Assembly: GCA_019120295.1 (NCBI GenBank)
Contig: DWVI01000005.1
Location: 955 to 64,954 of the forward strand
DNA length: 64,000 nt
Source of the DNA: Candidatus Onthoplasma faecipullorum
Lineage (GTDB): Bacteria; Bacillota; Clostridia; Christensenellales; UBA1242
Reading direction: 5' to 3'
The notes under the pieces are model-generated. The model was given only the letters and a program-made list of their open reading frames with translations. It had not been told where the DNA came from and searched no databases. Each line of letters starts with the position of its first letter. The first letter of the stretch is position 1. Made by a program: the position numbers and the translations under genes. This document shows positions 2,982 to 47,762 of the stretch, one piece after another.

Positions 2982-2983
2982 AG

Positions 2984-4135: not shown

Positions 4136-4147
4136 ACTTTTACCCCT

Positions 4148-6994: not shown

Positions 6995-7642
6995 TTACGC
7001 TTTTGCTTTTTTCTTACTTAATTTCTTTGCTCGTTTTTCTTCAATTCTTTTTTGCTCATTTATAACAAGTTCATTCATTTTTTCTACTATTAGGTTTGAA
7101 TATTCGTCCATATATGCTTTATCTTTTTTGCGCTCAACATCTGGATAAATTGGGTCACCAATTAAAAGTTTTGTTCTATGGAACGCTCTAATTTTTCTAT
7201 CAAACATCATAGGTACAACTGGTGTGTTTGTTCTAATCGAAAATAGTGCCACACCTTCTTTTGCACTTCCTTCTTCAACTGTTACAGTTTTTGCACGTGT
7301 GCCTTGTGGGAAAATGCAAATATGTTTATTCTTTTTAATTAGCGAGAATATTTCTTTTATTGCTCCTGGGTCTGCATTACCCCTATCCACAGGGACTGCG
7401 CCAAGCGAACGCATAAATTTCGTCATAAACTTATTTGAAAACAACTCTTTTTTAGCCAAAATTCTATGTTTTCTAGCAAACCTAATATCAATCATAATAG
7501 GGTCTAGATTAGACATGTGGTTACATGAAATAATGTAATTTTTGCCCTTCAATGGCTTTAATTTTTTCTTTCCTACCTTTTTAATTGGAAATAAAATTAA
7601 AAATGGAATACAAATTATAATGTACGCTATCCAAAAAAACAT
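6995..7642 (-). CDS. plsC: 1-acyl-sn-glycerol-3-phosphate acyltransferase
   Basis: N-terminal TM segment, acyltransferase motif NHMSNLDP (HxxxxD), and FPQGTR motif III. Confidence 0.8.
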   Translation of the reverse strand: MFFWIAYIIICIPFLILFPIKKVGKKKLKPLKGKNYIISCNHMSNLDPIMIDIRFARKHRILAKKELFSNKFMTKFMRSLGAVPVDRGNADPGAIKEIFSLIKKNKHICIFPQGTRAKTVTVEEGSAKEGVALFSIRTNTPVVPMMFDRKIRAFHRTKLLIGDPIYPDVERKKDKAYMDEYSNLIVEKMNELVINEQKRIEEKRAKKLSKKKAKA

Positions 7643-21624: not shown

Positions 21625-22557
21625 CTACTCTCCCAGCATCAAGCAATTAAAATTTTCGTCATACACACCAACAAGGGTTCCTGGTCCAAATTCATTAGAT
21701 AGCAAAATAAAACGCGAAAAAATCTTTTCGTCCAAAACTTTATCAAAACCTTTTTTCCTTTTTAATTCTTTAAAGTCGCGCGCGTGGATTGTTGCTATTA
21801 TGCTAACTCCACAATTTACCGCTTCAATTAGGTCATTTAGGTCTTTATCAAGGTCAATTTCGTCTGTTACTATCACATCTGGGCACATGCTTCTAATACC
21901 GTTTTTAAAAGCAAAACTTTTGCTACAATTTGTGTATATATCGCAAAAACCACCCAATATAACAGATGGTTCACCATTTATTGAATTTGCAATTTCGTTT
22001 CGTTCATCTGCAATTAACACATTTTTAGTGTTGTTGTGTTCGCTCATTTGAAAAACTAAATCACGCAAAAACGTGGTTTTACCCGCACCCGGTGGAGATA
22101 TTATTAGTGTGTTTTTTACTTGTTCCCCAACGATATAATCATACGCTTTTAAACTACAATTTCTAACGATGTGCGGAATGCGAATATTTGCAGATTGAAA
22201 ATCTTTAATAGTTACGATGTTGCCCTGTTCTTGGACAACTGTTCCTGTTAAGCCTACCCTAATTCCTTTTGGTAAAGTTATAAAGCCATTTATAATGTTA
22301 TCATTATAAGCATAAATGGAATTTTCGCTTGCGCGCGTGATAAAATTATTAAGCATATTTTTATTAACGATAATAAATTCACCGTCGTCATTTTTTAAAT
22401 AATACTTTTTGTTTTTAACGCAAATAATAAGTCGCTCATTAACGCGCATGCGAATTTCGGTTATTTCATTAAAACTGAATGTTTTGACAATTAAATTATA
22501 AATGTCACGTGGTAAATAATCTTTTAACATAACTAAAAATATTAAAAAATCACACAT
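21625..22557 (-). CDS. spoIIIAA: Stage III sporulation protein AA (AAA+/secretion-type ATPase)
   Basis: Walker A SPPGAGKTT, Walker B VIVTDEI, first gene of the operon. The true start may be the internal Met at 22530. Confidence 0.85.
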   Translation of the reverse strand: MCDFLIFLVMLKDYLPRDIYNLIVKTFSFNEITEIRMRVNERLIICVKNKKYYLKNDDGEFIIVNKNMLNNFITRASENSIYAYNDNIINGFITLPKGIRVGLTGTVVQEQGNIVTIKDFQSANIRIPHIVRNCSLKAYDYIVGEQVKNTLIISPPGAGKTTFLRDLVFQMSEHNNTKNVLIADERNEIANSINGEPSVILGGFCDIYTNCSKSFAFKNGIRSMCPDVIVTDEIDLDKDLNDLIEAVNCGVSIIATIHARDFKELKRKKGFDKVLDEKIFSRFILLSNEFGPGTLVGVYDENFNCLMLGE

Positions 22558-34099: not shown

Positions 34100-34451
34100 T
34101 GGTGGAGATGATGAGACTCGCACTCATGTCCTAATCAAAACAAATTCCATACACTACACGTTTAGTCAATGACTGCATTCGCCTTAATCAACTAACATTG
34201 ACACTTGATTAAAACTACCCTATTTAAACCTTTACATGCGCTAGGGAACGCATATAAATGTTCGCTGATAAACGACGTCAAGTTTAGCGTATCAGCACCG
34301 CTAAGTTGACGGCTCACGGCACTAAGCAGCGTAAGCTAATTTATTGTTGTTTGCGTTTATTTGTTTCGTGCAAAACGAAAATGTATTTAACGTGCCACCA
34401 CACGACGTGCGTATAAAATTTCCTTTGACCAGTCGAAACTAATTCATCCCC
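34100..34451 (-). ncRNA. ssrA: tmRNA (SsrA), 352 nt
   Basis: The minus strand begins GGGGATGAATTAGTTTCGAC and ends GAGTCTCATCATCTCCACCA. The acceptor stem has a G3:U70 wobble (alanine identity). An internal tag ORF GCA AAC AAC AAT AAA TTA GCT TAC GCT GCT TAG (34354-34322) encodes ANNNKLAYAA. smpB and rnr lie upstream. Confidence 0.95.
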
Positions 34452-34459: not shown

Positions 34460-34488
34460 ATTATATCATAAAATATAAAACTTTTCAA
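34460..34488 (-). promoter_or_regulatory. Sigma-A-type promoter of ssrA
   Basis: Minus strand TTGAAA (34488-34483), a 17-nt spacer, then TATAAT (34465-34460), 8 nt upstream of the GGGG 5' end. Confidence 0.7.
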
Positions 34489-34492: not shown

Positions 34493-34517
34493 TTTTTGTT
34501 TTTTACCAAAAAAGAAC
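34493..34517. repeat. Left copy of the 25-bp direct repeat (putative att site)
   Basis: TTTTTGTTTTTTACCAAAAAAGAAC, identical to 47216-47240. It contains an internal dyad (GTTTTTT-ACC-AAAAAAGAAC). Confidence 0.85.
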
Positions 34518-34642
34518 TGTTATTTTATAATCTGAGTGTCAGTTAATGAATAAAACTGCACTCGCTTATCTTTGGTTATACTATATTGTTCGTGTAGTTT
34601 TGTCTTAACTGCGCGAATTTTTTAATAAAAGGGGGTGTGATT

Positions 34643-34870
34643 TTGGCGTTTAAAACAAGTAATGGCATTGTCTTACGTAATCCTGCCGAAAAAGCAAAAC
34701 GTTTTGCTAGGCAAATGAAAAGCGGTTGTGTACGTGAAACTGGCGAACAATTAAATTATGCTGGACTAAGTTATCGTGCTGGTTACCTTCAAGCAAGACA
34801 AGACAGTGCAAATGCGTATAATTCAAATTTACGCAAAAAAAAGACTCGCAAGCGCAAGTCTAGAAAATAA
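34643..34870 (+). CDS. Small, highly basic protein (possible DNA-binding protein)
   Basis: A TTG start 7 nt after an AAAGGGGG RBS (the track starts at GTG 34637). The C-terminus is NLRKKKTRKRKSRK. No family recognised. Confidence 0.55.
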   Translation: MAFKTSNGIVLRNPAEKAKRFARQMKSGCVRETGEQLNYAGLSYRAGYLQARQDSANAYNSNLRKKKTRKRKSRK

Positions 34871-34883
34871 AAGGAGTTGATTA

Positions 34884-35288
34884 TTGAAAAAACGTAGATT
34901 TATTCCTTGGGGGAGGACTTTAACTACTAATGATAAATATCTTAGTAGAAAGAAAACCAATTCAAATAAAGTAAGACCGGTAGTAGTTGTTGATAATTAT
35001 AAAGATAATTTAGGAGTTGTACCCCTTTCTTCGAGAAAAGGAAATAATAGAACTGATTTGCCTAAACGAAAAAATAAAAAAACCGGACAGAGAACTTATT
35101 ATAAGCATTATTTTGAAATTGAAGATAATGAAGGTCAACCTATAAGAGTAAATGAGAAATTTAAAGAAAATCATAAAAATATGGACTTATCTAGGGAAGA
35201 AGTTTTAGATATTCGTCAAAATATATTTACGAAAGCAAAAACAAAACAGAGAAATAAAAAATTATATGATAGGTTACATAGAAAGTGA
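34884..35288 (+). CDS. Basic protein with a PemK/MazF-like core segment
   Basis: A TTG start 7 nt after AAGGAG. KVRPVVVVDNYKDNLGVVPLSS resembles the K-x-RP-hhhh....hhh-P-h-[ST]-[ST] strand pair of the PemK/MazF fold. It has long Lys/Arg-rich insertions. Confidence 0.4.
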   Translation: MKKRRFIPWGRTLTTNDKYLSRKKTNSNKVRPVVVVDNYKDNLGVVPLSSRKGNNRTDLPKRKNKKTGQRTYYKHYFEIEDNEGQPIRVNEKFKENHKNMDLSREEVLDIRQNIFTKAKTKQRNKKLYDRLHRK

Positions 35289-35491
35289 TATAAAAAATGA
35301 CCGTGCTATGTGACGGTCGTGCTTATAAACAAGAGTTATAAGCCTTACACATAAAGTGTAGTTCATTAAAGAACAACATTATTATAGTGTAAAAAAATTA
35401 ATATGTCAACCCTTTTAAAGAAAATTATTCTAAAAATTTGAATGGTTTGGTTTAGTGGTTGCTCGACTGCGTTTGAAAATTTTTAGGATGA

Positions 35492-35507
35492 GTTGCGACG
35501 TCGCAAC
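35492..35507. repeat. Perfect 16-bp palindrome GTTGCGACGTCGCAAC in the 397-bp non-coding region of the element
   Basis: Read directly. GC-rich in an AT-rich context, with additional hairpins at 35299-35318, 35321-35343 and 35346-35360. Confidence 0.8.
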
Positions 35508-35685
35508 AAAATTACTTTGCTTGTTATTTTGCTATATTCAACTATCTTAATAAAACTATAAGACCTATCAAAGTGCATAGGCGCACAATCAATAGTTTAA
35601 GTTGATTAAAGGTTATTCTTCCTTAAAAAGAATCAGATTATTAAAATATTAAAATTAAATTTTTATTAAATAAGGAGATTAAATT

Positions 35686-36030
35686 ATGGCATTTGTTAAA
35701 CCTATTAGAGAAATTGGATTAGTTATTAGTAAAAAAATCAATGAAGCAAGAGAAGCAGGAACGAGTTTAGACGGAACTAGGAAATGGGACGCACGTCCAC
35801 AAGAATTTATTGTTGAAGTTGTTAGTTGTGATGAAGATGATTTTGATTTAGATAAAGGTATTTTAAATGGTACTCGCGCCGAATATAAAGTCGATGAAGC
35901 AACCTATAAAAAGGTTAAATTCGGCGATTGGGCAAGTGTTAAGTACACAGCAAGTCAGTTTGGAGATAAATTGACAATTAAGCCTGAGTCTTTTGTCCTT
36001 CGAGAAAATAAAGCAAAGGAGAGTAAATAG
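35686..36030 (+). CDS. Hypothetical 114-aa protein; its position fits an ssDNA-binding (gene V-like) protein
   Basis: Strong RBS (AAGGAGA), acidic/beta-rich, immediately upstream of the small hydrophobic ORFs. The functional call is positional only. Confidence 0.3.
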   Translation: MAFVKPIREIGLVISKKINEAREAGTSLDGTRKWDARPQEFIVEVVSCDEDDFDLDKGILNGTRAEYKVDEATYKKVKFGDWASVKYTASQFGDKLTIKPESFVLRENKAKESK

Positions 36031-36032
36031 TT

Positions 36033-36212
36033 TTGAAAATATTTTTAGGCATTGTTATAGGAATTTTAATTGCTGTTGCTATTACTCTATTGACAGTTGC
36101 CATTGGTTGCGCTGTTAATGGTATTGGTTTTAGCGAACAAATTGTTGACTGGTTTGGAAATTCCACTGAAACGGTAGAACAAGCACGAATTTTAATGTCA
36201 ATGAGAATTTAG
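36033..36212 (+). CDS. Small hydrophobic protein, 59 aa (candidate inovirus coat protein); not in the ORF track
   Basis: A TTG start 9 nt after GGAGAG. The translation is MKIFLGIVIGILIAVAITLLTVAIGCAVNGIGFSEQIVDWFGNSTETVEQARILMSMRI, with one TM helix. Confidence 0.6.
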   Translation: MKIFLGIVIGILIAVAITLLTVAIGCAVNGIGFSEQIVDWFGNSTETVEQARILMSMRI

Positions 36213-36228
36213 CACAAGGTGATGTTCT

Positions 36229-36390
36229 ATGAAAAAATTACTAATTATATTAGCAATCATTGTGTTAGTAGTGTTATTTGGAACGTGGCCGTTGTCCGTT
36301 TTATCAAAAATAGTTGAATGGTTGGCAACTGGTATTCGCTGGTTGGCAAAAGCACTAGATTGGTTTGATTGGAACGGACTATTAATTTAA
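36229..36390 (+). CDS. Small hydrophobic protein, 53 aa (candidate inovirus coat protein); not in the ORF track
   Basis: ATG start with an upstream AAGGTGA. The translation is MKKLLIILAIIVLVVLFGTWPLSVLSKIVEWLATGIRWLAKALDWFDWNGLLI, an N-terminal TM/signal followed by an amphipathic Trp-rich helix. Confidence 0.6.
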   Translation: MKKLLIILAIIVLVVLFGTWPLSVLSKIVEWLATGIRWLAKALDWFDWNGLLI

Positions 36391-36454
36391 GACAAAGAGC
36401 ACTATTGATTTGGGGTTTACTTCAATTAGATAGTGCTTTTTTAAAAGGAGAATT

Positions 36455-37720
36455 ATGGGCAAATTTTTATCAGTTATATGGCGAATAATTGGTATTTTAT
36501 CAGTGTTAGTTATTACTTGTTTTATATGGTTATATTTCTTTGTGCCGAAACCTGAAACTATATCAACGAGTTATGTAAATTCGTTAACTGCATTTGACGG
36601 CGAAGATACGGCGCTAGAAGATTCTACTATTGTTTTAGATATACAACTTATGAAAAATGCAGATAATAGTGGCGAAAAATTATTTGAAGTTGCGTTTACA
36701 ACATATCAAGGCGAAAATACTGACGAGATATTTACAAAAGGTGTTCAAGTTGTAGGTGATTTTAATACTAGTGTATATCGAAGTCATAGAACAACAAAAT
36801 GGAAATTTTGGATTTTAGAAACTTATAATATTTGGTACGACATATCAATAGATAATTTATATTCTTATGATATTTCTTATGATAAAGGTGCCGGTATTGC
36901 TTATGCATCGCCTACTTCATTAAACAATTCAAGTTCTTTTATTGTTTCGGTTGGTAATGGCGAAAATATGAGATTAGCAAAACTTGAATTTAAAAATGAA
37001 GTTGTTGACGACAAATATTATGTAGGTAAAGGTTATGAATCTTCTTCAATTATTCCATACGATTCAATTTATTCTTTGTGCGGTTTAAATTATATGCTTT
37101 CAGCAATATATAATTCTGTTAATTCTTTGAATGCTGGAACGTCTTATATAACATTTGATTTATCAGAGTTTTTCAACGTTTATATTCAAGACGATGACGG
37201 ACAGTACAATATTTTAACGCAAGATACTCAATTTACATACGTTACTGCGCGAGTGAATGTTGAAGATAATGGAATTACAACTCGAACTCAATCAATGTTT
37301 GGTATGGTTGCTGAAAATGACGGCTCTATTTCATTTGAGATTGATGACAGCGAAAAATTATTTTGGAAAGCATATGAAAATGTATATATAACTGATTGTT
37401 TTGATACACGAGAATCTAGTTATTATAATGGCACACTGTTATCTATAAACAATGAAACCATAACTAAGTACAAAGATTATGAGAACTTACGTATACATTT
37501 AACGATTGATTTATCTAAGTATGAGAATGTTATAGGAATAGACGCATTTGGTTTGGATGGACTGAATTATTATGACATAACAATTATTGGTGGCTCACAA
37601 GACTTTTACTTTATGTCAAATAGTTTGACAAATACAAAAGTCAATAATATCTATCACTCAGACAACATTAATGTTGTTATCTATGATGACGTGGATGTCA
37701 ATGTAAAGGCGGTGGCATAA
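36455..37720 (+). CDS. N-terminally anchored 421-aa protein (candidate minor virion or adsorption component)
   Basis: TM anchor VIWRIIGILSVLVITCFIWLYFFV; the remainder is predicted extracytoplasmic. No family recognised. Confidence 0.5.
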   Translation: MGKFLSVIWRIIGILSVLVITCFIWLYFFVPKPETISTSYVNSLTAFDGEDTALEDSTIVLDIQLMKNADNSGEKLFEVAFTTYQGENTDEIFTKGVQVVGDFNTSVYRSHRTTKWKFWILETYNIWYDISIDNLYSYDISYDKGAGIAYASPTSLNNSSSFIVSVGNGENMRLAKLEFKNEVVDDKYYVGKGYESSSIIPYDSIYSLCGLNYMLSAIYNSVNSLNAGTSYITFDLSEFFNVYIQDDDGQYNILTQDTQFTYVTARVNVEDNGITTRTQSMFGMVAENDGSISFEIDDSEKLFWKAYENVYITDCFDTRESSYYNGTLLSINNETITKYKDYENLRIHLTIDLSKYENVIGIDAFGLDGLNYYDITIIGGSQDFYFMSNSLTNTKVNNIYHSDNINVVIYDDVDVNVKAVA

Positions 37721-38244
37721 TGGAAAATATGAAAACAAGTGAATTTATTGTTTGGTTATTGTGTCTTGTTGGCGCTGTATTGAGTGGTTTTTGGATATTT
37801 CGAACTTATACTGCTGATAGTGAAATTATAGGAAATATTCAACAAACATCTAGTAATTTGGTTTTTATCATTCAATCAGAAACAGTTGTAATGCAACAAG
37901 ACCAAGAATATACCAATAAATATTATACAAGTAAAAAGTTTTCGTCAGTGTATCAAGTTGATTCAACTTTTGACGCAGAGAAATATGATTATGAATTTAT
38001 TTTGAATGACCGTTGTTTTGCTAGTACAAAATTTGAAAATGGTCTTTTGGAATGTAATTTAGAAACAACTTTTGTTAACACTAATGGTCAAGATTTATTT
38101 ACTGATACATTGTATATTACTATCAATTTTTATAGTGGTAGCACAGTGTTAGATATGTATACACTAGGTGGTGCTACTGCAAACGCATATTGGCTAAGTT
38201 ATTTTAATTCTTATGGTTTCGATATGCGAGTTTATAAATTATAA
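37720..38244 (+). CDS. N-terminally anchored 174-aa protein, unknown function
   Basis: TM FIVWLLCLVGAVLSGFWIF; the start overlaps the stop of the preceding gene (ATAATG). Confidence 0.5.
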   Translation: MENMKTSEFIVWLLCLVGAVLSGFWIFRTYTADSEIIGNIQQTSSNLVFIIQSETVVMQQDQEYTNKYYTSKKFSSVYQVDSTFDAEKYDYEFILNDRCFASTKFENGLLECNLETTFVNTNGQDLFTDTLYITINFYSGSTVLDMYTLGGATANAYWLSYFNSYGFDMRVYKL

Positions 38245-38256
38245 GGAGATTATTTT

Positions 38257-41154
38257 ATGACAAAAAAAATAATTGCAATAGTTGTCAGCATACTTGCAAT
38301 AACTGCCATAGGTTGTTTTGTCGGTTTAAATTGGAAATCGATTAAAGCAATGTTGAGTGGTGCACAAATATACACTGCTGAACAAATGGAAGAAAGTTAT
38401 AATCAAGGTTATGCTGACGCAAATACAAATGAAGATACATATTTACAACAAATAGATTATTATAAAAATTTAGTTGAAGATAATGAATTAGAAATTGAAA
38501 ATTTAAATAATGAAATTACTAATTTAACAAATACAAATGATTCTTATCAATCTCAAATTACAAATTTAAATGGAATTATTGAAGAAAACGAAAATACTAT
38601 TGAAAGTTTACAATCAACAATTAGTGATAATAATACAACAATATCTGGTTTAAATACTCAAATTAGTGGTTTAAATAACGAAATTGATAGTTTAGAAAGT
38701 GATATCGAAGATTTACAAAATGAATTGAGTCAAGCAGGAAAAGATTATCAAATATTACAAGCAGAGTTAACAACAAAAACAAATCAAGTTATTTCATTAC
38801 AAAATCAAGTAAATAATTTGCAAAAATTAGTTAATCAATTAAACGCAACAAATGAGTTAAATTTAACTACTATTTCAACATTAAATTCACAAATCGAAAC
38901 TTTAAATAGTCAAATTAGTGATTTAACATATCAAATAAATAATAATGATTCTACTGTTGCAAGTTTAAATAACCAAATAGCACAATTACAAGAATCTATA
39001 TCATATTATGAGAACTATATTTCAAATTTAGAAAGTGAAACACAAGTTGTTGTTACATTCGAATTTGACGGAAGTGTATACAATATTCAAATAGTTAATA
39101 AAGGCGCAACTGTATCGGTAGTTAACCCTACTTCAACTGATTATGTTCAATTTAATTATTGGACAATCAACGAAGAACAAATTGATTTATCTAGTTATAC
39201 ATTTAACACCAACACAAAAGTTGTTGCTGACGTAACTTATAGTTATGACGTTAAATTCTACGTTGATAATGCTGTTCATAATTCACAAATTATTCAATCT
39301 GGAAATAAAGCAACTACTCCAACCGTTCCAACAAAAACTGGTTATACATTCTTAGGTTGGTCGTTAAATGGTAGTGATATTGTTGATTTAAGCACTGTTA
39401 CAATTACAGAAAATACAAATTTTTATGCTTTATTTGTTCAACAATTTACAGTACAATTTGTTTATGAAGATGACGTTGTTTCAACTCAAACAATAAACAA
39501 TGGTGCCTATGCAACAAGTCCATCCGTTGAAAGCACAACATATAAAGTGTTTAATGGTTGGAAAGTTAATGGAACTAGTGTTGACGTTGAAACTTATAAG
39601 ATTGTAGGCGCAACAACATTTGTTGCTGATATTACTTATAAATATGACGTAACATTTATGGTTGACGACGAAGAATACGACACGCAAATAGTTACAAGCG
39701 GACAATACGCAACTGTTCCAACCGCTCCAACAAAAGACGGTTACATATTTAAAGGTTGGTCATTAAATGGCAGTGATATTATTGATTTAAGTGGAAATTC
39801 TATAACTTCAACAACAACTTACTATGCTGTATTTGAAGTTTTGTATGCAAGCGTAGAATATGATAATAGCACATCATATTACAATAATTTTAATGATGCT
39901 TGGAATTATGCTTGTACATTGAGCACTACTAGTTCAAAATATCCAACATTAACATTGTATAAAGATATTGACGCAGAAAGTATGTATAATGATAATGTTT
40001 ATGATTATTTATATGTTCCAAGTGGTAAGTATATCGAATTAGATTTAAATGGTCATATTGTTACGGCACAATCAGCAAGTACTTATTCTATTTTAATGAA
40101 TGGAAAATTAACTATAAATGACTCTATTGGTACTGGTAGTATTGTTGGTAAATACATAAAAGCAAATACAAATAGTCTTTTAGTAATTGACGGTGGAACA
40201 ATTAATTCGTATATAGATATGATTGGTTATTCTAGTTTATATATGAATGGCGGTAAAATTATTACAGCAAGTTCTAATGGTGCAGTATATTTACATTCTC
40301 CATCTTCTTCCATTTCGTTTTATATGACCGGCGGAGTTATCACAAATACTGCTGGTATTGGTGTGCGCTTAGTTGGTTCAACTTCGGCAAAAGTTAATTT
40401 CACTATGTCTGGCGGAACAATTAGTGATTGTGCGGGTCGTGGTATTAATGCTGGTGGTTATACAACAGTTAAAATATCAAATGGAATAATTGAAAATAAT
40501 AGTGGCGGTGGTATTTTAGTATCTGGTTCATCAACTTCTAAGTTAACAACATTAACAATAACTGGTGTTACAATACAAAATAATACAGCAAGTTATGGCG
40601 GTGGTATTTATTTAGGAAGTTGCACTGAGTCTAGTATATCTAATGCCAATATTCTTAATAATACGGCAACAACTTCTGGCGGTGGTATTTATTTAAATTC
40701 TAGTTCTTCTTCAAGATTTTACACAACTATAGAATCTTCTATTATTCAAAATAATTCTGCTGCAACTGGTGGTGGAATTTACAACGGCGCTTATTCTTCA
40801 ATAACTTCTTTGCAAGATGTTCAAATTATAAATAATAATGCTACTAATAATGGTGGTGGTTTATATTCGGCATATAATTCTCACACATCATTAACGGGAG
40901 CAACTAAAATTATTAATAATACCAAAGGAGAAACAGATAATAATGTGTACATACCAGCAGATGATTGCACAATATCAATACAGTATGATTTTACTGGAGA
41001 ATTAGGTTTTACACATAAAGATGGTGCTGGAAAAGTTGCGAGTTTGACATCTTCAGTATCAGGTGCGGTTTGTACAACTGGTACTTATTATAGCGATATT
41101 ACTAGTTATACTATTAGTGTTGATACCACTAATAGACGCGTGGATTTGAGTTAG
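38257..41154 (+). CDS. 965-aa anchored multidomain adhesin-like protein (candidate receptor-binding, pIII-analogous protein)
   Basis: N-terminal TM, then about 200 aa of Asn/Gln/Leu heptad coiled coil (LN.QI..LN..I..L). Next come four Listeria-Bacteroides-type repeats (GYTFLGWSLNGSDIVDLS, GYIFKGWSLNGSDIIDLS, FNGWKVNG, FNYWTINEE). The C-terminal part is a beta-helix with PMP-like GGGIY/GGGLY repeats. Confidence 0.6.
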   Translation: MTKKIIAIVVSILAITAIGCFVGLNWKSIKAMLSGAQIYTAEQMEESYNQGYADANTNEDTYLQQIDYYKNLVEDNELEIENLNNEITNLTNTNDSYQSQITNLNGIIEENENTIESLQSTISDNNTTISGLNTQISGLNNEIDSLESDIEDLQNELSQAGKDYQILQAELTTKTNQVISLQNQVNNLQKLVNQLNATNELNLTTISTLNSQIETLNSQISDLTYQINNNDSTVASLNNQIAQLQESISYYENYISNLESETQVVVTFEFDGSVYNIQIVNKGATVSVVNPTSTDYVQFNYWTINEEQIDLSSYTFNTNTKVVADVTYSYDVKFYVDNAVHNSQIIQSGNKATTPTVPTKTGYTFLGWSLNGSDIVDLSTVTITENTNFYALFVQQFTVQFVYEDDVVSTQTINNGAYATSPSVESTTYKVFNGWKVNGTSVDVETYKIVGATTFVADITYKYDVTFMVDDEEYDTQIVTSGQYATVPTAPTKDGYIFKGWSLNGSDIIDLSGNSITSTTTYYAVFEVLYASVEYDNSTSYYNNFNDAWNYACTLSTTSSKYPTLTLYKDIDAESMYNDNVYDYLYVPSGKYIELDLNGHIVTAQSASTYSILMNGKLTINDSIGTGSIVGKYIKANTNSLLVIDGGTINSYIDMIGYSSLYMNGGKIITASSNGAVYLHSPSSSISFYMTGGVITNTAGIGVRLVGSTSAKVNFTMSGGTISDCAGRGINAGGYTTVKISNGIIENNSGGGILVSGSSTSKLTTLTITGVTIQNNTASYGGGIYLGSCTESSISNANILNNTATTSGGGIYLNSSSSSRFYTTIESSIIQNNSAATGGGIYNGAYSSITSLQDVQIINNNATNNGGGLYSAYNSHTSLTGATKIINNTKGETDNNVYIPADDCTISIQYDFTGELGFTHKDGAGKVASLTSSVSGAVCTTGTYYSDITSYTISVDTTNRRVDLS

Positions 41155-41972
41155 TGATTACAATAATCTTTGCTCCACCACGTACAGGAAAGACTTGTTT
41201 AATGACACACTTATTAAATATGATTGCGTTTGATAGAAACCGAACACGTGCTATGCAACAAGAAATATTATCTAAAAAACAAAATGGTTTTAAAAATATT
41301 AAGACTATACCTATTCATTGCGTTAGTGCTAATTATGACATTACATTGCGCAAGTTTGGGTATAGTCCACGGCATAGCCGTAGAATCAACCCTTTTAGGT
41401 TGGGTTTTGCAAACAAGTATGTTAAGACGCATTTTAATATACCATTTGAAGCAATAGGAATTACGGAAGGTCAAAAATATTTAAACAGCCGTATGTCAAT
41501 GTATTTTCCTGATTGGCAAAGCCGTTGGTATGAACAGCACGGACACGACGATATAGATATATTTATTGATACTCAACGACCTATGCTTATTGACGTGAAT
41601 ATTCGTGAACTTGCTTGTTTTATAGAAGTTATTTCATTAAAGGTTGAAAATGACGATTATGGAAGAGTTTGCAAACTTACTTGGAAAGTGCGAAAAATAG
41701 AAAATTCTTCACTATTTGATAAGTATATGGCAAGTGGGAAAAAAGACGATAGTTGTTATACAGAAGAAGAGATTGTTGCAGATTATAACGTATTTGCGTG
41801 TTATGATAGTCAATCTTGTAAACCTAAATTTTATCAAGGTCATATGGATGACGATTTTGATTTAGATTATTCAAGTGAAATTGAAGAAACATTGTTGGGT
41901 TATATTAAATTTTTGGAAGAATTTGACGATGAATTACCAGAAAATTTTTATCAAAAAAGAAAAGCGAGTTAA
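41154..41972 (+). CDS. Zot/pI-like P-loop NTPase (inovirus morphogenesis ATPase-like)
   Basis: N-terminal beta-strand plus Walker A (ITIIFAPPRTGKTC), Walker B-like AIGITEGQ, and a HGHDDIDIFIDTQRPMLIDVNIREL block resembling the Zot-family RH.G.D....TQ motif. The start overlaps the stop of the upstream gene. Confidence 0.6.
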   Translation: MITIIFAPPRTGKTCLMTHLLNMIAFDRNRTRAMQQEILSKKQNGFKNIKTIPIHCVSANYDITLRKFGYSPRHSRRINPFRLGFANKYVKTHFNIPFEAIGITEGQKYLNSRMSMYFPDWQSRWYEQHGHDDIDIFIDTQRPMLIDVNIRELACFIEVISLKVENDDYGRVCKLTWKVRKIENSSLFDKYMASGKKDDSCYTEEEIVADYNVFACYDSQSCKPKFYQGHMDDDFDLDYSSEIEETLLGYIKFLEEFDDELPENFYQKRKAS

Positions 41973-41974
41973 TT

Positions 41975-42325
41975 ATGAATTTTAATAAAAATAAGTTAAT
42001 AAATGCAGTTTTACGTAATTATTACAATACGTTTTCTTTTACATTAGATACAAGTGATTTTGTTCCGCAAAAGTTTAATAAAAAAATACATAATTATATT
42101 TATAAAAATATGAAGAAAAAATTTAAAGAGATTGATAAAGAAGATAAAAAATTTCAAAAAGAACTTAAACTTATAAATAAAGTTAAAAAAGAAAAAACGT
42201 TTAGTGTTAAATTATGTTTTATTATGTTAAAGCAAAAACTTAGATATTTATATTTAAAGAAAAAACATAGACTTTTAGATTATAAAGAAAATGAAAATTT
42301 AGAAATTAAAAATGAAGAAGAATAA
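41975..42325 (+). CDS. Lys-rich 116-aa protein, unknown function
   Basis: An ORF immediately after the ATPase; low-complexity basic composition. Confidence 0.4.
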   Translation: MNFNKNKLINAVLRNYYNTFSFTLDTSDFVPQKFNKKIHNYIYKNMKKKFKEIDKEDKKFQKELKLINKVKKEKTFSVKLCFIMLKQKLRYLYLKKKHRLLDYKENENLEIKNEEE

Positions 42326-42363
42326 AATTAATTTAAAAAAAGTTTTTTAATAGTGTTGTGCGT

Positions 42364-42444
42364 TGTGGATTAGTGGGTTAATCGAAGATTTATCCACTTA
42401 TCCATCGATTGTGGTATTGTGGTTAACTTAATAAGTTATCCATC
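42364..42444. promoter_or_regulatory. Cluster of DnaA-box-like 9-mers upstream of Rep
   Basis: Against TTATCCACA: 42390-42398 TTATCCACt (8/9); 42364-42372 reverse TaATCCACA (8/9); 42418-42426 reverse TTAaCCACA (8/9); 42398-42406 and 42436-42444 TTATCCAtc (7/9). Confidence 0.45.
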
Positions 42445-42482
42445 AATTCCACAGTCGACTTGCAACGCGAAGTAAAATCGGA

Positions 42483-42614
42483 CAATTTTCGTCTGCTCGA
42501 AAATTGAGTTTTGGGTTGGGTCCCAAAACGGTCCACCTATTGTGTAAACTATGCTTACAAGTCAAGTTTATAAAGAGTTGCAGTGGCGCGGGCGCGGTTT
42601 ACCCGCCCCGCCAC
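42483..42614 (+). other. Three stable hairpins (candidate replication origin or packaging signal)
   Basis: CAATTTTCG-6nt-CGAAAATTG (42483-42506); GTTTTGGG-6nt-CCCAAAAC (42508-42529); and the GC-rich GTGGCG(C)GGGCG-loop-CGCCCCGCCAC (42583-42614). Confidence 0.5.
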
Positions 42615-42678
42615 TACTCGACAATAGCAACACTTAACGGAATAAAAATTTAAAAAATTATAAGTATTGGAGAAGAAA

Positions 42679-43674
42679 ATGTTAGAAGAAAAATCTACAA
42701 CTTATAATTTATTTACTACTGAAAGGAAATATCGGCAAGATACATTGGTTAGTTATTACTTTCAGAAGAATAAAAAAGTTATAAAAAATTGTTCTCCAAT
42801 AGATATAGACGGAGAACGTTATAGATTAAATCACGAAAGTGGCGAAATTACTACGTATTCTAAAAAAGATATATTGCATTCATATGGTGTTAGTTTACGT
42901 AGAACAAAAATTATGATGGATATGTTGCTAACAATGAATGACTTTGATTGGTTTTGGACTTTAACTTTTGATAAGGAAAAAGTTGACCGAACAAATGATA
43001 AAGTTGTTTTCGATTGTTATAAAAAATACATTAACAACATTAAAAAGCAATATCCATCGTTTAAATATATGTGCTTTCCCGAAAGGCACGAAGATGGCTG
43101 TTTTCATTTTCACTTGTTAACTGCTGGACTCACACCTAAACAAATGGGTTTGGTAGACTCTGGAAAGGTTTGTTGTTCGTGGGCAGAAAAACGTTATAAC
43201 GGAATACGTTCACGTGAATATTATAATCGAACTAAACATTTGCACGAACACGAAATGAAAGAAACTGACGGCGAAACAATATATAACGCAAGCAATTTTA
43301 TTTATGGCTACACCACTGTTAGTAGAATAGTAAGTCGTGAACGTTGTAATAGTTATGTTAAAAAATATGTTGAGAAAGCATTAGGAAGTACTGAAATATT
43401 TAAGAAGAGATTTTATTATTCTTCAAATTTAAATGTTCCAAGTATTGTTAAACGTTTGATTGGTGCAGATTTTGAACACCCCTATGATATAGATAAAGTT
43501 AAAAATATTATTGATAATCCGATTGTTATAAACGCAAAATCTACACCGCATATAAATTACAATGTACTACAAGTGAAAATAGATAACGACATTAAACAAA
43601 ATATAGATAATGGTTTAATTCTATTGTCTGAGAAAGAAATTGAAGAATTAGGAGAGATATATGGGCTTTTTTAA
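42679..43674 (+). CDS. HUH-superfamily rolling-circle replication initiator (Rep)
   Basis: Motif I FWTLTF (42952-42969), motif II HFH within GCFHFHLL (43105-43113), motif III Y-VKK-Y within SYVKKYVEK (43354-43368). The start is placed at ATG 42679 after GGAGAAG (the track starts at TTG 42667). Confidence 0.75.
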   Translation: MLEEKSTTYNLFTTERKYRQDTLVSYYFQKNKKVIKNCSPIDIDGERYRLNHESGEITTYSKKDILHSYGVSLRRTKIMMDMLLTMNDFDWFWTLTFDKEKVDRTNDKVVFDCYKKYINNIKKQYPSFKYMCFPERHEDGCFHFHLLTAGLTPKQMGLVDSGKVCCSWAEKRYNGIRSREYYNRTKHLHEHEMKETDGETIYNASNFIYGYTTVSRIVSRERCNSYVKKYVEKALGSTEIFKKRFYYSSNLNVPSIVKRLIGADFEHPYDIDKVKNIIDNPIVINAKSTPHINYNVLQVKIDNDIKQNIDNGLILLSEKEIEELGEIYGLF

Positions 43675-43900
43675 TAGAAAACAAAAAAAGATTGCTTTAA
43701 AACATTCAAATTTTGTGTTGGAAAAATTATATCATATAAGTGAACAAAAATTGCACTATGCTTCATTATCTGGAAATGAAAAACAACTTAAAAAAGCAAT
43801 GAAACAACACGGCAATTATGAATATGCATTATTGTATAAAAACACACCTGAATATAAGAAGTTGGTTAGAAAAAATTTAAGGAGAAATAATGGAAAATAA
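43661..43900 (+). CDS. Small basic hypothetical protein (79 aa)
   Basis: An ORF overlapping the Rep stop; no motif recognised. Confidence 0.4.
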   Translation: MGFFNRKQKKIALKHSNFVLEKLYHISEQKLHYASLSGNEKQLKKAMKQHGNYEYALLYKNTPEYKKLVRKNLRRNNGK

Positions 43901-44264
43901 TTATTATATTAAACTTATGTTTTCTCTACCAAATAAAATTAAACATATTGATAATTTAATTACAATTCTATCTCGCAACAGTTATCTTTCAGTTGATACT
44001 GAAGCCTGCGTTGATTCTATTAGTAAATATATGTTAGAAAAGCAAAAACTAATAGATAAATTTCATAAATTAACTAATTTTTATTTAAATTTAGATAAAA
44101 AACTTGTTGATTGTGTAAATATGCGCTTTTGTTATCACTACTCAATTGAAGAGATAGTAGAAGAATTGAAAATATCTGAGCGAACTATTATGAGAAGAAT
44201 TTGTACAGTTAACAAAAAATTAAGAGAACTTTTAAATAAGGGGGAAACATATGGAAAACTTTAA
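43890..44264 (+). CDS. Sigma-70 region-4-like HTH regulator (ArpU/DUF1492-like phage transcriptional regulator)
   Basis: The C-terminal VNMRFCYHYSIEEIVEELKISERTIMRRICTVNKKLRELL fits the sigma region 4.2 HTH pattern. Confidence 0.5.
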   Translation: MENNYYIKLMFSLPNKIKHIDNLITILSRNSYLSVDTEACVDSISKYMLEKQKLIDKFHKLTNFYLNLDKKLVDCVNMRFCYHYSIEEIVEELKISERTIMRRICTVNKKLRELLNKGETYGKL

Positions 44265-44922
44265 TATACAAAATGAATTTGATTTTAAAGATAAAACTTT
44301 AAATAATTTGATTTGTGATTTACAAACTTGTTATTTTAATCAGCAAAATAATTTTTGTAAAATTTGTTTTACTATTTTTAAAATAAGTCAATATTTTGAT
44401 AACAATTACATAAATGTAGAACAAAAAACAAATGAATATTATGACAAATACAAATTACTTGCCAAGTTTGGTTTTGATAAAACAGCGATATCTCGAATGA
44501 CTAATTGTTATTTAAAATTTATGACTGGTGGTTATGACGGAAGCGCTGTAAGTTTAAAGTCTTGGTATGAAGGCTTTTCTCCGTCAAAATTGTTTGAGTT
44601 ATTAAAATTATCTAATTTAACTTGTGAAGATTGTATTGATAAAAAATTAATTGTACCATCTATGACTGTTAAAGAGATAAGAAACTATATTAAACAATTA
44701 AATGACGGAAAAGATAAAGCGGAAAAAGTTGTTGAAGAACTTAACAATGACAATGACACGGAAGAGATTCCAATGGCATATAACCCTAAACAACATTATG
44801 ACATCGAGTATTTTGACGGTTTATCTAAAAAGCAGTTAGTTAATTGTATTTGGGAATTGCAAAAGTATTGTGAAAAACTTGCTGGAAAAATAAAAATAAC
44901 TAAGTCTAAGGTGGTGGCATAA
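44251..44922 (+). CDS. Hypothetical 223-aa protein, possible DNA-binding protein
   Basis: FGFDKTAISRM and SPSKLFELLKL segments resemble HTH/ParB-like helices; weak. Confidence 0.35.
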   Translation: MENFNIQNEFDFKDKTLNNLICDLQTCYFNQQNNFCKICFTIFKISQYFDNNYINVEQKTNEYYDKYKLLAKFGFDKTAISRMTNCYLKFMTGGYDGSAVSLKSWYEGFSPSKLFELLKLSNLTCEDCIDKKLIVPSMTVKEIRNYIKQLNDGKDKAEKVVEELNNDNDTEEIPMAYNPKQHYDIEYFDGLSKKQLVNCIWELQKYCEKLAGKIKITKSKVVA

Positions 44923-45170
44923 TGGGAATGTTTGATAATGGTATTTACAAAACAACTGATTATTATTGCACTCGAAACGACTATTTAGACATTTTTAAAC
45001 TTAGTGATATTGATTCTAAATTTATGAAAAAACATCATATATCTGGCACAGTCAAAGAATTTAAAAATAAAGTTAGAAAAAGTAAACCATTTGCAAGAGT
45101 TAAGACTGGAAATTATAGATATAGTTATAGAATGACACCAATTTATGATATAAAAAATTTTAAAAAATAG
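44922..45170 (+). CDS. Hypothetical 82-aa protein
   Basis: An ORF translationally coupled to the previous gene (TAATG). Confidence 0.4.
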   Translation: MGMFDNGIYKTTDYYCTRNDYLDIFKLSDIDSKFMKKHHISGTVKEFKNKVRKSKPFARVKTGNYRYSYRMTPIYDIKNFKK

Positions 45171-45181
45171 GAGAAATTATT

Positions 45182-45346
45182 ATGGAAAACAAATTAAATC
45201 AAATTGAATATATAAACAAATTAGAACTAGAAAATAAACAATATAAACAACAAATAAGTGAATTGTATAAGGAATTATTTAAGATACAAGTACAAGTAGA
45301 TTTTTTAAGTATTAGATTAATGAAATTGAAAAATGAAAGTTGTTAG
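45182..45346 (+). CDS. Small coiled-coil protein, 54 aa; not in the ORF track
   Basis: ATG preceded by TAGGAGA. The translation is MENKLNQIEYINKLELENKQYKQQISELYKELFKIQVQVDFLSIRLMKLKNESC. It is followed by a strong terminator. Confidence 0.45.
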   Translation: MENKLNQIEYINKLELENKQYKQQISELYKELFKIQVQVDFLSIRLMKLKNESC

Positions 45347-45350
45347 ATTT

Positions 45351-45384
45351 AAAAAACTAGGTTTTAATTTGACCTAGTTTTTTT
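45351..45384. terminator. Bidirectional rho-independent terminator
   Basis: Perfect 12-bp arms AAAAAACTAGGT / ACCTAGTTTTTT with a 9-nt loop, between convergent genes. Confidence 0.75.
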
Positions 45385-45907
45385 CTATTTCATAAGCACT
45401 TAAAATTATTTGAAAGTGTTCATTGCTATTGTCAGATAGTTGCATATCAACTAGTGACGCATATGCAAATGCTGGTGTGTCTATATTTTTAATGCGTATC
45501 GAAGAATCAATTTTATAAATTTTTATTTTATTTTCTTTTGTTAAATTGACATATTCTCCATTATAATAAATTGTTAAATTAACTTGTATTGTATACTCTT
45601 CATTATAGATAGGAATTTCGTTAGTAAAGTTCGAGAAGTAACCATTTTTTGATTCTTCTAAGTTTGTTTTATATATTGTGCTAACGATCGAACCATATTC
45701 ACAAATATTATAGGTTTTGTTTTTATAGTCGATTATATCTATTTTTAATTGTCGCATTTCATATGTATTGTTATTATTTGCATTTGTTGACGAAACATAT
45801 ATTTTGGAAACTTGAATATAATCTAAATTTGAATTTTTACATCCAACAATTAAAAAGCAATTTATTAAGATAAAAGCAATTATTAAACTCTTAAATGTTT
45901 TTTTCAT
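45374..45907 (-). CDS. Lipoprotein, unknown function (only minus-strand gene in the element)
   Basis: Signal peptide with lipobox LIVGC (MKKTFKSLIIAFILINCFLIVGCKNS). Confidence 0.6.
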   Translation of the reverse strand: MKKTFKSLIIAFILINCFLIVGCKNSNLDYIQVSKIYVSSTNANNNNTYEMRQLKIDIIDYKNKTYNICEYGSIVSTIYKTNLEESKNGYFSNFTNEIPIYNEEYTIQVNLTIYYNGEYVNLTKENKIKIYKIDSSIRIKNIDTPAFAYASLVDMQLSDNSNEHFQIILSAYEIEKN

Positions 45908-46030
45908 AGATTTAATTCCTTTTTACTAATTATACTGAATATTTTTAACAAATTATTAAATTGACAAAATTAGACAAAATTCGACATTGAAATTATTAAA
46001 AACATATTTTATTATTTATTAGGAGAGATT

Positions 46031-47023
46031 ATGAAACGAAAGATAAAAAGATATTACAAAGTAGCATATTTAGCAGAAGAAAAATATAAAGTATTAAAAC
46101 TATTAAAGCATTCTACAATCGAATTTGTGGCGCATAGGTATCATTGCAGTATACGTTCGATTTATCGTTGGAAAAGACAGTTTAACGGAACTATTGAAAG
46201 TTTAGAGAATAAATTTTCACGGAAAAATATGTTACATCCAAATCGACATACTGACGAAGAAATAAAGCATATAAAAGATTTAATTAGGCGCAACCCTAAC
46301 ATAGGACTAAATGAATTATATGGTAAATTGCGTTTAAATTATTCTTATGCTCGCCATCCTATGAGTTTGTATAATTTTTTGCGTAAACACGGTTGGTACG
46401 GAAACGTTAAGAAGAAAAATAGATATAAGCCACAACCATATGACACACCTATTCATATAGGCGAAAAGTGGCAGTTAGACGTTAAGTTTGTACCACGTAG
46501 TTGTTATGTCGGACAATATAAGGAAGAAAAACGTTTTTATCAATACACAGTTATTGACGAAGCAACAAGGGAACGTTTTATATACCCTTATGAAGAACAG
46601 TGTCCGCAATCTACTATTGATTTTATACAACGTGCTATTGTTTATTTTGGTTATCAACCAAATATTATTCAAACAGATAACGGCGCAGAATTTACATATA
46701 CTAGGCAAACAAAACACGACCAAGAGCATTTATTTGATAAATATTGTAGATTGCATAAAATTGAACATAAACTTATTCGTCCGCGCACTCCGCGTCATAA
46801 TGGCAAAGTGGAACGTTCGCATAGAAGTGATAACGAAAGATTTTATCGTTATCTAAAATTTTATTCATATGATGACTTGTTAATACAAATGAAAGCATAT
46901 TTGCGCAAGTCAAACAATATACCTATCTCAGTTTTGAAATCGAGAGACGGAAAAATTGATTGGTTAACACCAAAACAAAAACGTAAGGAGTTATTATTGT
47001 TAGATTGGGGTGTTCTTGAATAG
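46031..47023 (+). CDS. DDE transposase/integrase, IS481-like (IS3 superfamily, rve core)
   Basis: N-terminal HTH (CSIRSIYRWKRQF) and a DDE core: WQLDVKF, IQTDNGAEF, RPRTPRHNGKVERSHRS. A single ORF of 330 aa, as in IS481-family elements. Confidence 0.8.
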   Translation: MKRKIKRYYKVAYLAEEKYKVLKLLKHSTIEFVAHRYHCSIRSIYRWKRQFNGTIESLENKFSRKNMLHPNRHTDEEIKHIKDLIRRNPNIGLNELYGKLRLNYSYARHPMSLYNFLRKHGWYGNVKKKNRYKPQPYDTPIHIGEKWQLDVKFVPRSCYVGQYKEEKRFYQYTVIDEATRERFIYPYEEQCPQSTIDFIQRAIVYFGYQPNIIQTDNGAEFTYTRQTKHDQEHLFDKYCRLHKIEHKLIRPRTPRHNGKVERSHRSDNERFYRYLKFYSYDDLLIQMKAYLRKSNNIPISVLKSRDGKIDWLTPKQKRKELLLLDWGVLE

Positions 47024-47215
47024 GAACTTTATATTTAATAATTTTTTAAAGACAATCAATTTGTCTTAGTTTTTCATATTGTTTGGGCGAACTTCCCCTA
47101 GGGGAAGTATTAGATAGAATAAAAAAATAAGCAGTAAACAACTAAATTTACTACTTTTTTAAAATTTTTTTAATTTTTTTTAAAAAACTTGTGTCAAACA
47201 GTTGACATATTTGCA

Positions 47216-47240
47216 TTTTTGTTTTTTACCAAAAAAGAAC
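47216..47240. repeat. Right copy of the 25-bp direct repeat (putative att site)
   Basis: TTTTTGTTTTTTACCAAAAAAGAAC, identical to 34493-34517. Confidence 0.85.
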
Positions 47241-47291: not shown

Positions 47292-47762
47292 TTAATATTG
47301 TTCAGCAAATTTTTGTTTGTTTGCGCGTTCAATATCACGCTGTTTGATTGTTTCACGTTTATCATATAATTTTTTACCTTTGGCAAGGTGAATTTCAACT
47401 TTTAAGTTACCCTTAACAAAATATGCTTTTGTTGGAACAAGTGTTAAATTCTCAGTTTCAATTTTCTTTTTTATTTTTCTAATTTCGTCTTTATGAAGCA
47501 ACAATTTTCTATCTCTTTTTTCGTCATGATTTTTGTTTGTGATGTATGCGTTATCATATGTTTTTATATAACTATTACGTAGAAAACATTCGTCATTTTT
47601 GATATAAGCATAGCAATCAGCAATAGAAAAATGACCCGCGCGGACAGATTTAATTTCTTCACCTGTTAGTACAATTCCTGCTTCAAAAGCATCTAGTAAA
47701 GTGTACTCAAATTTTGCGCGGTTATTTAAAAATAATTTTTGCTTTTCTTCATTTTTTTTCAT
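47292..47762 (-). CDS. smpB: SsrA-binding protein SmpB
   Basis: 156 aa with GIVLTGEEIKSVR, RDRKLLLHKDEI, LVPTKAYF and AKGKKLYDKRE motifs. Confidence 0.95.
   Translation of the reverse strand: MKKNEEKQKLFLNNRAKFEYTLLDAFEAGIVLTGEEIKSVRAGHFSIADCYAYIKNDECFLRNSYIKTYDNAYITNKNHDEKRDRKLLLHKDEIRKIKKKIETENLTLVPTKAYFVKGNLKVEIHLAKGKKLYDKRETIKQRDIERANKQKFAEQY

Follow-up and report, generated by a model that had tools for sequence, protein, structure and literature searches.

A 12,698-bp insert in the genome of Candidatus Onthoplasma faecipullorum is probably the intact prophage of an inovirus-like (order Tubulavirales) filamentous phage with single-stranded DNA (ssDNA), and it reached its present site recently: a DDE-type transposition carried it there and left a 25-bp duplication of the target. 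Its host belongs to the Clostridia (Christensenellales), is uncultured, and is known as a metagenome-assembled genome (MAG) in an NCBI Third Party Annotation record. The sequence analyzed, hereafter the window, is the 64,000-nucleotide (nt) stretch at positions 955 to 64,954 of the forward strand of contig DWVI01000005.1 (assembly GCA_019120295.1), and all coordinates are positions in the window. The insert, at 34518–47215, combines a Zot/pI-type ATPase with a rolling-circle initiator and a structured candidate origin, in a small one-strand genome lacking capsid-type genes (17 of its 18 open reading frames, or ORFs, lie on the plus strand, the exception being 45374–45907).

In the Ff phages, the replication protein is followed by the ssDNA-binding protein, the small coat proteins, the adsorption protein, the pI ATPase, and the intergenic region. 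The insert shows the succession replication initiator (Rep), OB-fold protein, small membrane proteins, large anchored proteins, Zot-like ATPase, and intergenic region, and this mirroring of the Ff order supports the inovirus reading. An initial annotation, made from the sequence alone, had proposed an inovirus-like gene content and order. Every ORF that it listed exists, and the proposal is supported by the Zot-family ATPase, the HUH Rep, the membrane-protein block, and the origin region (Table 1).

The Whole Insert Is the Transposed Unit

The insert is exactly bracketed by a perfect 25-bp direct repeat, TTTTTGTTTTTTACCAAAAAAGAAC. It stands between the tmRNA gene ssrA on its left (34100–34451, minus strand) and smpB on its right (47292–47762, minus strand; Pfam SmpB, 3.9e-51); its genes, with the one exception given above, are oriented opposite to both, and the GC skew is reversed within the block. 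For comparison, contigs encoding an identical SmpB were looked up. In seven of them, all from other samples, ssrA adjoins smpB with no insert, and the left flank, one copy of the 25-bp repeat, and the right flank follow each other base for base. Further contigs do carry the insert, among them L170 (from ERZ27234801). Occupied and empty sites thus coexist in the species, which makes the element polymorphic there, and the repeat is host sequence that was doubled when the element entered.

A perfect repeat of 26–27 bp also borders each of four related elements with the same type of transposase (L007, L020, L045, and L082). These repeats are unrelated in sequence, and the termini inside them are conserved (left, TGTT(A/T)TTTTATAATCTG; right, ...CAGTTGACATATTTGCA). 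In five independent insertions the transposed unit thus has TG...CA termini, a length of 11–13.7 kb, and a duplication of 25–27 bp. The exact transposase of the window, together with an identical right end, abuts four flanks in different samples, namely smpB, an RNase H gene, a bPH_2 gene, and helix-turn-helix (HTH) genes. Another contig (L175, from ERZ24773284; 12,827 bp, 81x coverage) runs exactly from the left terminus to the right terminus, as assemblies do for an element with several contexts.

The window's repeat, allowing up to four mismatches, was found in none of 86 related loci, the tmRNA flank was found in none of 16 relatives checked, and no relative lies at ssrA or smpB. Since the repeats differ between insertions and the same element is found at four sites, the element has neither an attachment (att) site nor a bias toward the ssrA/smpB spacer; the targets are AT-rich intergenic DNA. 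The initial annotation had taken the repeat for an att site and the spacer for the integration target. The first is a target-site duplication, and the second is one of several places where the element has landed. A site-specific att phage, with the repeat as att core, is ruled out, as the independent insertions have no common junction core and no tRNA or tmRNA target.

The integrase of the element is a DDE enzyme with HTH and rve domains, in keeping with the DDE recombinase annotated earlier at this end. Among insertion sequence (IS) families of NCBIfam, IS481 is the best match (2.4e-49, 168.4 bits), below the equivalog cut-off of 224 bits. Like IS481-family elements, the insert has an HTH-plus-rve transposase, TG...CA termini, and many insertion sites with target duplication; unlike them, it scores under the cut-off and mobilizes about 11–14 kb of phage genes instead of about 1 kb. 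The usual target duplication is 4–15 bp for IS481 and 5 bp for Mu, and one of 25–27 bp is much longer than is common for IS481-type elements. Transposable phages such as Mu are a functional analogy.

A Divergent Zot-Family ATPase

As judged from profiles and from a predicted structure, the 272-aa (amino acid) ATPase is a divergent member of the Zot/pI family of NTPases. In a search of PHROGs the protein alone matched a Zot family over a stretch of only 31 residues. Its alignment with the protein annotated as Zot in bajarodino virus 12 (PQ006185) covers 83% of the window protein at 30% identity (9e-19), and the viral protein passes Pfam Zot on its own. A profile of close relatives found 2R2A in PDB at 4.2e-5, and a profile of 85 diverse relatives, taken from a search of 1.8 billion proteins, found it at 1.7e-15, with no other entry below 1e-3. 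The 2R2A entry is the N-terminal domain of the Neisseria Zot. Individually, 73 of the 85 relatives match Pfam Zot (PF05707, E ≤ 0.01). The structural model is of moderate confidence (predicted local distance difference test, pLDDT, 67); its best PDB match by Foldseek is again 2R2A, and Inoviridae Zot are the most frequent named proteins among its best viral matches.

All members of the family have between 240 and 313 aa. Members of the closest subfamily carry ITE(A/G)Q as their Walker B motif (residues 103–107 of the window protein) instead of the DEAQ of Zot: all 20 sequences have Thr for Asp, whereas the Glu is retained by every one of the 85 relatives. The 116-aa protein encoded after the ATPase has a conserved N-terminal domain of 60 residues, a lysine-rich tail, and no membrane segment. 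The codons of the two genes often overlap or abut across loci. From its conservation, the 116-aa protein is considered a partner of the ATPase.

Rep and a phiX174-Like Origin

The Rep had been annotated as an HUH protein of phiX type, and its family matches and catalytic motifs agree. In 28 distinct Reps (that of the window and 27 relatives), conservation reaches at least 90% for the motifs FxTLTF, HFH, and YVKKY, the last of which contains a pair of tyrosines three residues apart. The main intergenic region, just upstream of rep, has a minimum free energy of −74.7 kcal/mol as ssDNA, against −34.3 ± 4.2 in shuffled sequences (z = −9.6). In the window element and five relatives that were scanned, the most structured 200-nt segment lies in every case (6/6) between the ATPase/116-aa pair and rep. 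A GC-rich hairpin in this region folds in all 20 distinct relatives despite unrelated stems (z from −4.3 to −7.7, each sequence folded separately and compared with its shuffles). RNAalifold on a MAFFT alignment gave only a 4-bp stem, as indels misalign the GC-rich hairpin.

A motif CTACT(T/C)GACAATAGTAACAC follows this hairpin. It is found in 28 related loci as well as in the window, always on the coding strand, and it sits between the ATPase and rep wherever the locus covers both genes. In most relatives a second hairpin, GAGTGTTACT/AGTAACACTC, presents it in a loop of 12 nt. Its consensus, CTACTTG/ACAATAGTAACACT, is identical to the phiX174 origin core CAACTTG/ATATTAATAACACT at 17 of 21 positions (checked against NC_001422), and the annotated phiX174 nick, G4305/A4306, aligns with the putative nick G42620/A42621; the copy in the window differs from phiX174 at six of 20 positions. 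The likeness to phiX174 (Microviridae) comprises the HUH Rep with its YxxxY pair and this motif. In contrast, no capsid or scaffold gene of microviruses came up in the Pfam and PHROGs scans, and the motif of the relatives is mostly in a hairpin loop. Membership in the Microviridae was rejected, since only Rep type and origin motif resemble and capsid matches are lacking.

The second intergenic region is not strongly structured. On its minus strand there is a perfect sigma-70 consensus (TTGACA-17-TATAAT, 12/12; 35409–35381), with a terminator-like hairpin about 60 nt downstream (35318–35299). From its sequence, this pair could correspond to a short antisense RNA or to a minus-strand priming site.

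Candidate Structural Proteins

The five consecutive proteins of 59, 53, 421, 174, and 965 aa have one N-terminal membrane segment each in a hydropathy scan, which agrees with the two small single-segment proteins and the three anchored proteins annotated initially. The first two stand at the position expected for inovirus coat proteins. In 37 relatives the 59-aa ORF keeps its membrane segment and the motif NGIxFGxQIVxWFG, followed by a variable acidic tail; the 53-aa ORF is the more conserved of the two, strongly so in 46 distinct relatives. The 965-aa protein carries an N-terminal coiled coil of about 260 residues, three Flg_new repeats (Pfam, 2.4e-23), and a Beta_helix domain (3.7e-9). Because relatives exchange its distal, C-terminal domain (for LRR_5, the BspA-type leucine-rich repeats), it is a candidate adsorption protein. 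Its PHROG matches (tape-measure, SbcC, and similar) fall mainly on the coiled coil and were treated as artefacts.

The 114-aa protein has the position of gene V and an AlphaFold model (pLDDT 80) with the topology beta1-3/helix/beta4-5. This is suggestive of an OB fold. The sequence itself has no match in PDB, phage records, Pfam, PHROGs, or NCBIfam. An identity of the 134-aa protein as PemK/MazF was discarded (E of 0.02–0.05). As in the initial annotation, no capsid, portal, terminase, or tail family was found in Pfam and PHROGs scans, where the only matches of the structural category are weak and concern the N-terminal part of the 965-aa protein; nor is there a secretin family in these scans. 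The slot of the 177-aa ORF looks like a cargo (moron) position: in L175 an unrelated ORF of 102 aa takes its place, and the ORF of L020 at this position shares 33% identity.

Table 1. Features of the insert and its borders (window positions)
Feature	Position	Strand	Evidence or remark
ssrA promoter, TTGAAA-17-TGnTATAAT (host)	34460–34488	-	Insertion just upstream; promoter intact
Left target-site duplication (host sequence)	34493–34517		Perfect repeat; single copy in seven empty-site contigs
Left terminus, TGTTATTTTATAATCTGAGTGTC	34518–34540	+	Kept in relatives inserted elsewhere; near-identical homologous terminus starts contig L175
Very basic 77-aa protein, pI 11.1	34637–34870	+	Homologues in 14 related loci; no Pfam/PHROGs match
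Basic 134-aa protein, pI 10.4	34884–35288	+	Sub-threshold matches only
Second intergenic region	35289–35685		Fold z only −2.2
114-aa protein, candidate ssDNA-binding protein	35686–36030	+	AlphaFold model, OB-fold-like topology
59-aa protein, candidate coat protein	36033–36212	+	One membrane segment (hydropathy)
53-aa protein, candidate coat protein	36229–36390	+	One membrane segment (hydropathy)
Acidic 421-aa anchored protein, candidate minor virion/assembly protein	36455–37720	+	Syntenic homologues, 22–59% identity; no family match
174-aa anchored protein	37720–38244	+	ORF, hydropathy, synteny
965-aa anchored protein, candidate adsorption protein (pIII analogue)	38257–41154	+	Domains
272-aa Zot/pI-family P-loop NTPase, putative morphogenesis ATPase	41154–41972	+	Family profile, structure search
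Basic 116-aa protein	41975–42325	+	Follows the ATPase in 161/166 related loci
Main intergenic region, 341 nt, multi-hairpin; candidate origin/packaging region	42326–42666	+	ssDNA folding
GC-rich hairpin just 5′ of the origin motif	42581–42615	+	In 20/20 distinct relatives, stem sequences differ
Origin-like motif, CTACTCGACAATAGCAACAC	42614–42633	+	Conserved in relatives; putative Rep nick G42620/A42621
HUH rolling-circle Rep (ATG at 42679)	42667–43674	+	Pfam PF23343, 2.2e-10; phrog_3419, 2.4e-13
Five small ORFs (79, 124, 223, 82, 54 aa), presumed regulators	43661–45346	+	124-aa: sigma-70 region-4-like HTH
Lipoprotein-like 177-aa ORF	45374–45907	-	Lone opposite-strand gene, just upstream of transposase; variable cargo slot
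IS481-like DDE transposase (integrase)	46031–47023	+	Pfam rve, 1.4e-15; syntenic in relatives
Right terminus, ...CAAACAGTTGACATATTTGCA	47193–47215	+	Conserved in relatives; end of L175; identical at other flanks
Right target-site duplication	47216–47240		Perfect repeat; single copy in empty sites

Distribution of the Family and Its Likely Free Forms

Metagenomes contain hundreds of members of the ATPase family, which comprises about 319 clusters at 50% identity. It is also present in at least 149 species-representative genomes, mostly MAGs of Christensenellales and other Clostridia from animal guts. Its members stand as hypothetical proteins in public records. Among relatives, the core of structural proteins, ATPase, and Rep is kept while the integration module varies: it is an IS481-like DDE transposase in the window, and an IS30-like one in L136 and L119. 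L002 instead has a tyrosine integrase and L061 a tyrosine-integrase-like gene, each with an S24 repressor.

L136 (12,724 bp, with a terminal overlap of 127 bp) and L119 (11,821 bp, overlap of 43 bp) contain only element genes, all on one strand, including Rep, Zot, and DDE transposase. Such overlaps make it likely that both are circular forms. In L136 the transposase and the homologue of the 77-aa protein lie on either side of the closure, a position that corresponds to the ends of integrated elements. Three distinct family members (L110, L135, and L166) were seen on a single contig of 342,676 bp (ERZ1643251 NODE-16), and therefore one genome can hold several related elements. A relative was also seen in a cultured mouse-gut isolate, Pumilibacter muris CLA-AA-M08 (L061; NZ_CALPCN010000004.1, at about 165–186 kb). 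This element carries a Flg_new adhesin, the ATPase (71% identity), a PF23343 Rep, and a LexA-like S24 repressor, and its integrase-like gene has the N-terminal SAM-like and the central integrase domains.

Comparison with Known Filamentous Phages

Sequence comparisons indicate that the closest classified relatives are plectroviruses. The family profile of the ATPase matches ORF2 (338 aa) of Spiroplasma plectrovirus SpV1-C74 at 4.7e-11, and the transposase matches ORF3 of the same phage at 1.8e-13 (28–32% identity). The Rep profile has no match in SpV1-C74 (translated with genetic code 4), nor does any other protein of the element. Phages of this type (Plectroviridae, Vespertiliovirus; SpV1-C74 and SkV1CR23x) share with the insert a short Zot-like ATPase, a phage-borne DDE transposase, a small circular genome with genes on one strand, and the lack of an annotated secretin. 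They differ in their wall-less Mollicute host, in genetic code 4, and in size (7.8 kb versus 12.7 kb), the host here being a member of the Clostridia, order Christensenellales.

A second group of relatives is found among the bajarodino and Dulem genomes from faecal viromes, which are circular, 5–10 kb long, and labelled Inoviridae. The Zot of PQ006185 (9.8 kb) is related, and 26 of the genomes so labelled carry a Rep with 25–32% identity. PQ006185 differs in its low identity and in a gene annotated as integrase and a repressor, and the IS481-like transposase is found in none of these genomes. The literature searched holds no publication on bajarodino viruses.

With the Ff phages (M13, fd, f1), the insert shares module order, a Zot/pI ATPase, and a structured intergenic region before rep. 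Yet Ff phages do not integrate, their pI has a membrane segment and works beside a pIV secretin, neither of which the insert has, and their coat proteins are not homologous to the candidates found here.

The initial annotation regarded inoviruses of Gram-positive bacteria as rare and poorly characterized. This was overstated, as gut inoviruses of such hosts and inoviruses carrying transposases have already been described (PMC6813254, PMC10061712), and plectroviruses with a transposase (ORF3) are known as well. These works report pI-containing prophages of gut Clostridia, 6.5–16 kb long, with direct-repeat flanks and modular integration genes that include transposases, and Enterocloster inoviruses were shown to be secreted (Burckhardt et al. 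2023, PMC10061712). In the sets of Roux et al. and Burckhardt et al. the flanking repeats were taken as att sites, whereas here they are target-site duplications. The likeness drawn here to these families is one of description.

Alternative Explanations

Several observations weigh against a filamentous phage. The ssDNA genome, the virions, and the filaments are predicted here from the genes. The ATPase of the window by itself lies below the Pfam Zot threshold and matches no Pfam family, so that the similarity to Zot/pI put forward initially is significant for the family profile but fails for the single protein; its Walker B Asp is replaced, and the hydropathy scan finds no membrane segment in it, as had been noted before. 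The Foldseek matches of the 114-aa model, mostly OB folds of RPA, SSB, and PriB, are weak (E of 0.01–0.2). The 59- and 53-aa proteins have no homologue among known coat proteins and lack the usual layout of acidic N-terminus and basic C-terminus. In IMG/VR only one contig has a related ATPase (57% identity), and a search of the related loci and IMG/VR for a circle junction (right end, 0–30 nt, left end) gave no match. Finally, hairpin-rich origins are also found in rolling-circle plasmids.

Some of these points would suit a non-viral mobile element, either a DDE transposon of large size or a rolling-circle plasmid that has integrated, with the Zot-like ATPase and the surface proteins as cargo and no virion. 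Transposon-like behavior is what is actually shown, rolling-circle plasmids share the HUH Rep in addition to hairpin-rich single-strand origins, and both the coat candidates without known homologues and the near absence of the family from IMG/VR fit. However, all related loci retain the ATPase with its 116-aa partner, and the small membrane proteins recur as a syntenic block wherever this is detectable, be it with an IS481-like, an IS30-like, or a tyrosine recombinase. Because the block persists whichever integrase is present, ATPase and membrane proteins behave as core and not as cargo. The signature gene of inoviruses encodes a Zot-family ATPase (PMC6813254, PMC10061712), and homologues of Rep and Zot occur in the circular faecal genomes deposited as Inoviridae. 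Scans of Pfam, PHROGs, and NCBIfam detected no relaxase, coupling protein, or plasmid Rep family. Nothing thus points to a plasmid or to an integrative and conjugative element, the outcome that the initial annotation had opposed to its own proposal; a phiX-type Rep, a structured origin-like region, and two likely circular relatives are found instead. A non-viral element is accordingly unlikely.

It is quite unlikely that the insert is a defective or satellite prophage, derived from an inovirus and no longer forming particles alone. Such a state would fit the Thr in place of the Walker B Asp and the failure to recover a circular form of the exact element among the related loci and in IMG/VR, and filamentous satellite phages do exist, e.g., RS1 of CTXphi. 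Against this, all ORFs are intact and syntenic with those of relatives, and ITE is invariant across the closest subfamily, hence a conserved feature rather than decay. The element recurs in identical copies at four or more sites and as a contig of high coverage, both of which indicate recent activity, and the site is polymorphic within the species.

A chance juxtaposition of an ordinary IS481-like IS and an unrelated genomic island is highly improbable and is refuted by the empty-site comparison: the transposase does lie at the very end of the insert, and sequence alone cannot tell such transposases from selfish insertions (Roux et al. 2019, PMC6813254), but the duplication encloses all 12.7 kb, none of which is present at the empty site, both termini are conserved in complete elements elsewhere, L175 spans from terminus to terminus, and the transposase is in synteny among relatives and also occurs in the likely circular ones.

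A Possible Life Cycle

If the insert is an inovirus-like prophage, the following cycle can be proposed. The IS481-like transposase would make, or act on, a double-stranded circle with abutting termini, similar to an IS circle, at whose junction ...GACATATTTGCA would be joined to TGTT(A/T)TT.... This circle would also be the replicative form. Rep would nick the origin motif (CTACTYG/ACAAT) and so drive rolling-circle synthesis of the plus strand; on DNA bearing CTACTYGACAATAG, the cut would fall after the G, with covalent attachment to a Tyr. The 114-aa OB-fold protein would then coat the ssDNA. The Zot-like ATPase, which has neither its own anchor nor a secretin, and the membrane-anchored proteins may jointly drive loading of the small coat proteins and extrusion of the filament, and the 965-aa protein, with its exchangeable C-terminal domain, may serve in adsorption. 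Re-integration would be a transposition into near-random AT-rich targets, with a stagger of 25–27 bp.

A more tentative idea, which we regard as possible though doubtful, is that of a “transposable inovirus,” in which the double-stranded replicative form doubles as the IS-circle intermediate; virions would carry the element from cell to cell, and transposition would spread it within genomes. One molecule would then serve both Rep-driven production of ssDNA and copy-out/paste-in transposition, and the geometry of the IS481-like transpososome would be unusual, with a stagger of about 26 bp. If true, this could explain the three family members on one contig of 343 kb.

Novelty of the Element

The initial annotation suggested an undescribed lineage. 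This stands insofar as the element belongs to a new and divergent lineage, and no paper describing this family or a Christensenellales inovirus was found in the literature searched; the kind of virus was already known. What is new is the base-pair evidence that a whole phage genome is the transposed unit, the 25–27-bp duplication, the conserved phiX-like origin hairpin, and the size and taxonomic reach of an unannotated family. The role of transposases in inoviruses was left open by Roux et al. (PMC6813254), and the comparison with empty sites gives direct evidence on this point, namely lysogeny by transposition.

Christensenellales are widespread in animal and human gut communities, and their phages have hardly been described. 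The data supply exact boundaries, an empty site, and a candidate origin with a predicted nick position. The cultured carrier P. muris CLA-AA-M08 makes it feasible to study how a filamentous phage would leave a walled cell with a single membrane using a pI without anchor and no secretin.

Host Genes and Neighboring Regions

The host was initially described as an endospore-forming Firmicute. The window does contain a spoIIIAE-like gene (19087–20367, minus strand; 8.2e-64) and a spoIIIAA-like gene (21625–22557, minus strand; 3.3e-71), both scoring slightly under the NCBIfam cut-offs. To judge by these genes, the lineage retains part of the sporulation machinery and endospore formation is plausible. 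A D-Ala-D-Ala carboxypeptidase gene is also carried by the host, which like the spoIIIA genes sets it apart from the wall-less Mollicutes. Proteins encoded in the flanks of the insert are identical to those of Candidatus Onthoplasma faecipullorum. An Rfam scan found nothing beyond tmRNA and tRNA.

Adjoining the insertion site, a gene at 25801–32499 (minus strand) encodes a protein of 2,232 aa with a subtilisin (S8) domain, many MBG_2-type repeats, and a single C-terminal hydrophobic segment; it is kept in all conspecific contigs. A second polymorphic island lies near the same tRNA/rnr region in one conspecific contig (L167, positions 1–7023, upstream of the RNase R gene), where phage-like genes replace the housekeeping genes of other strains. 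Its content includes a phi29_gp9_C tail domain, a collagen-repeat protein, a Gp49/HTH pair, and SecB.

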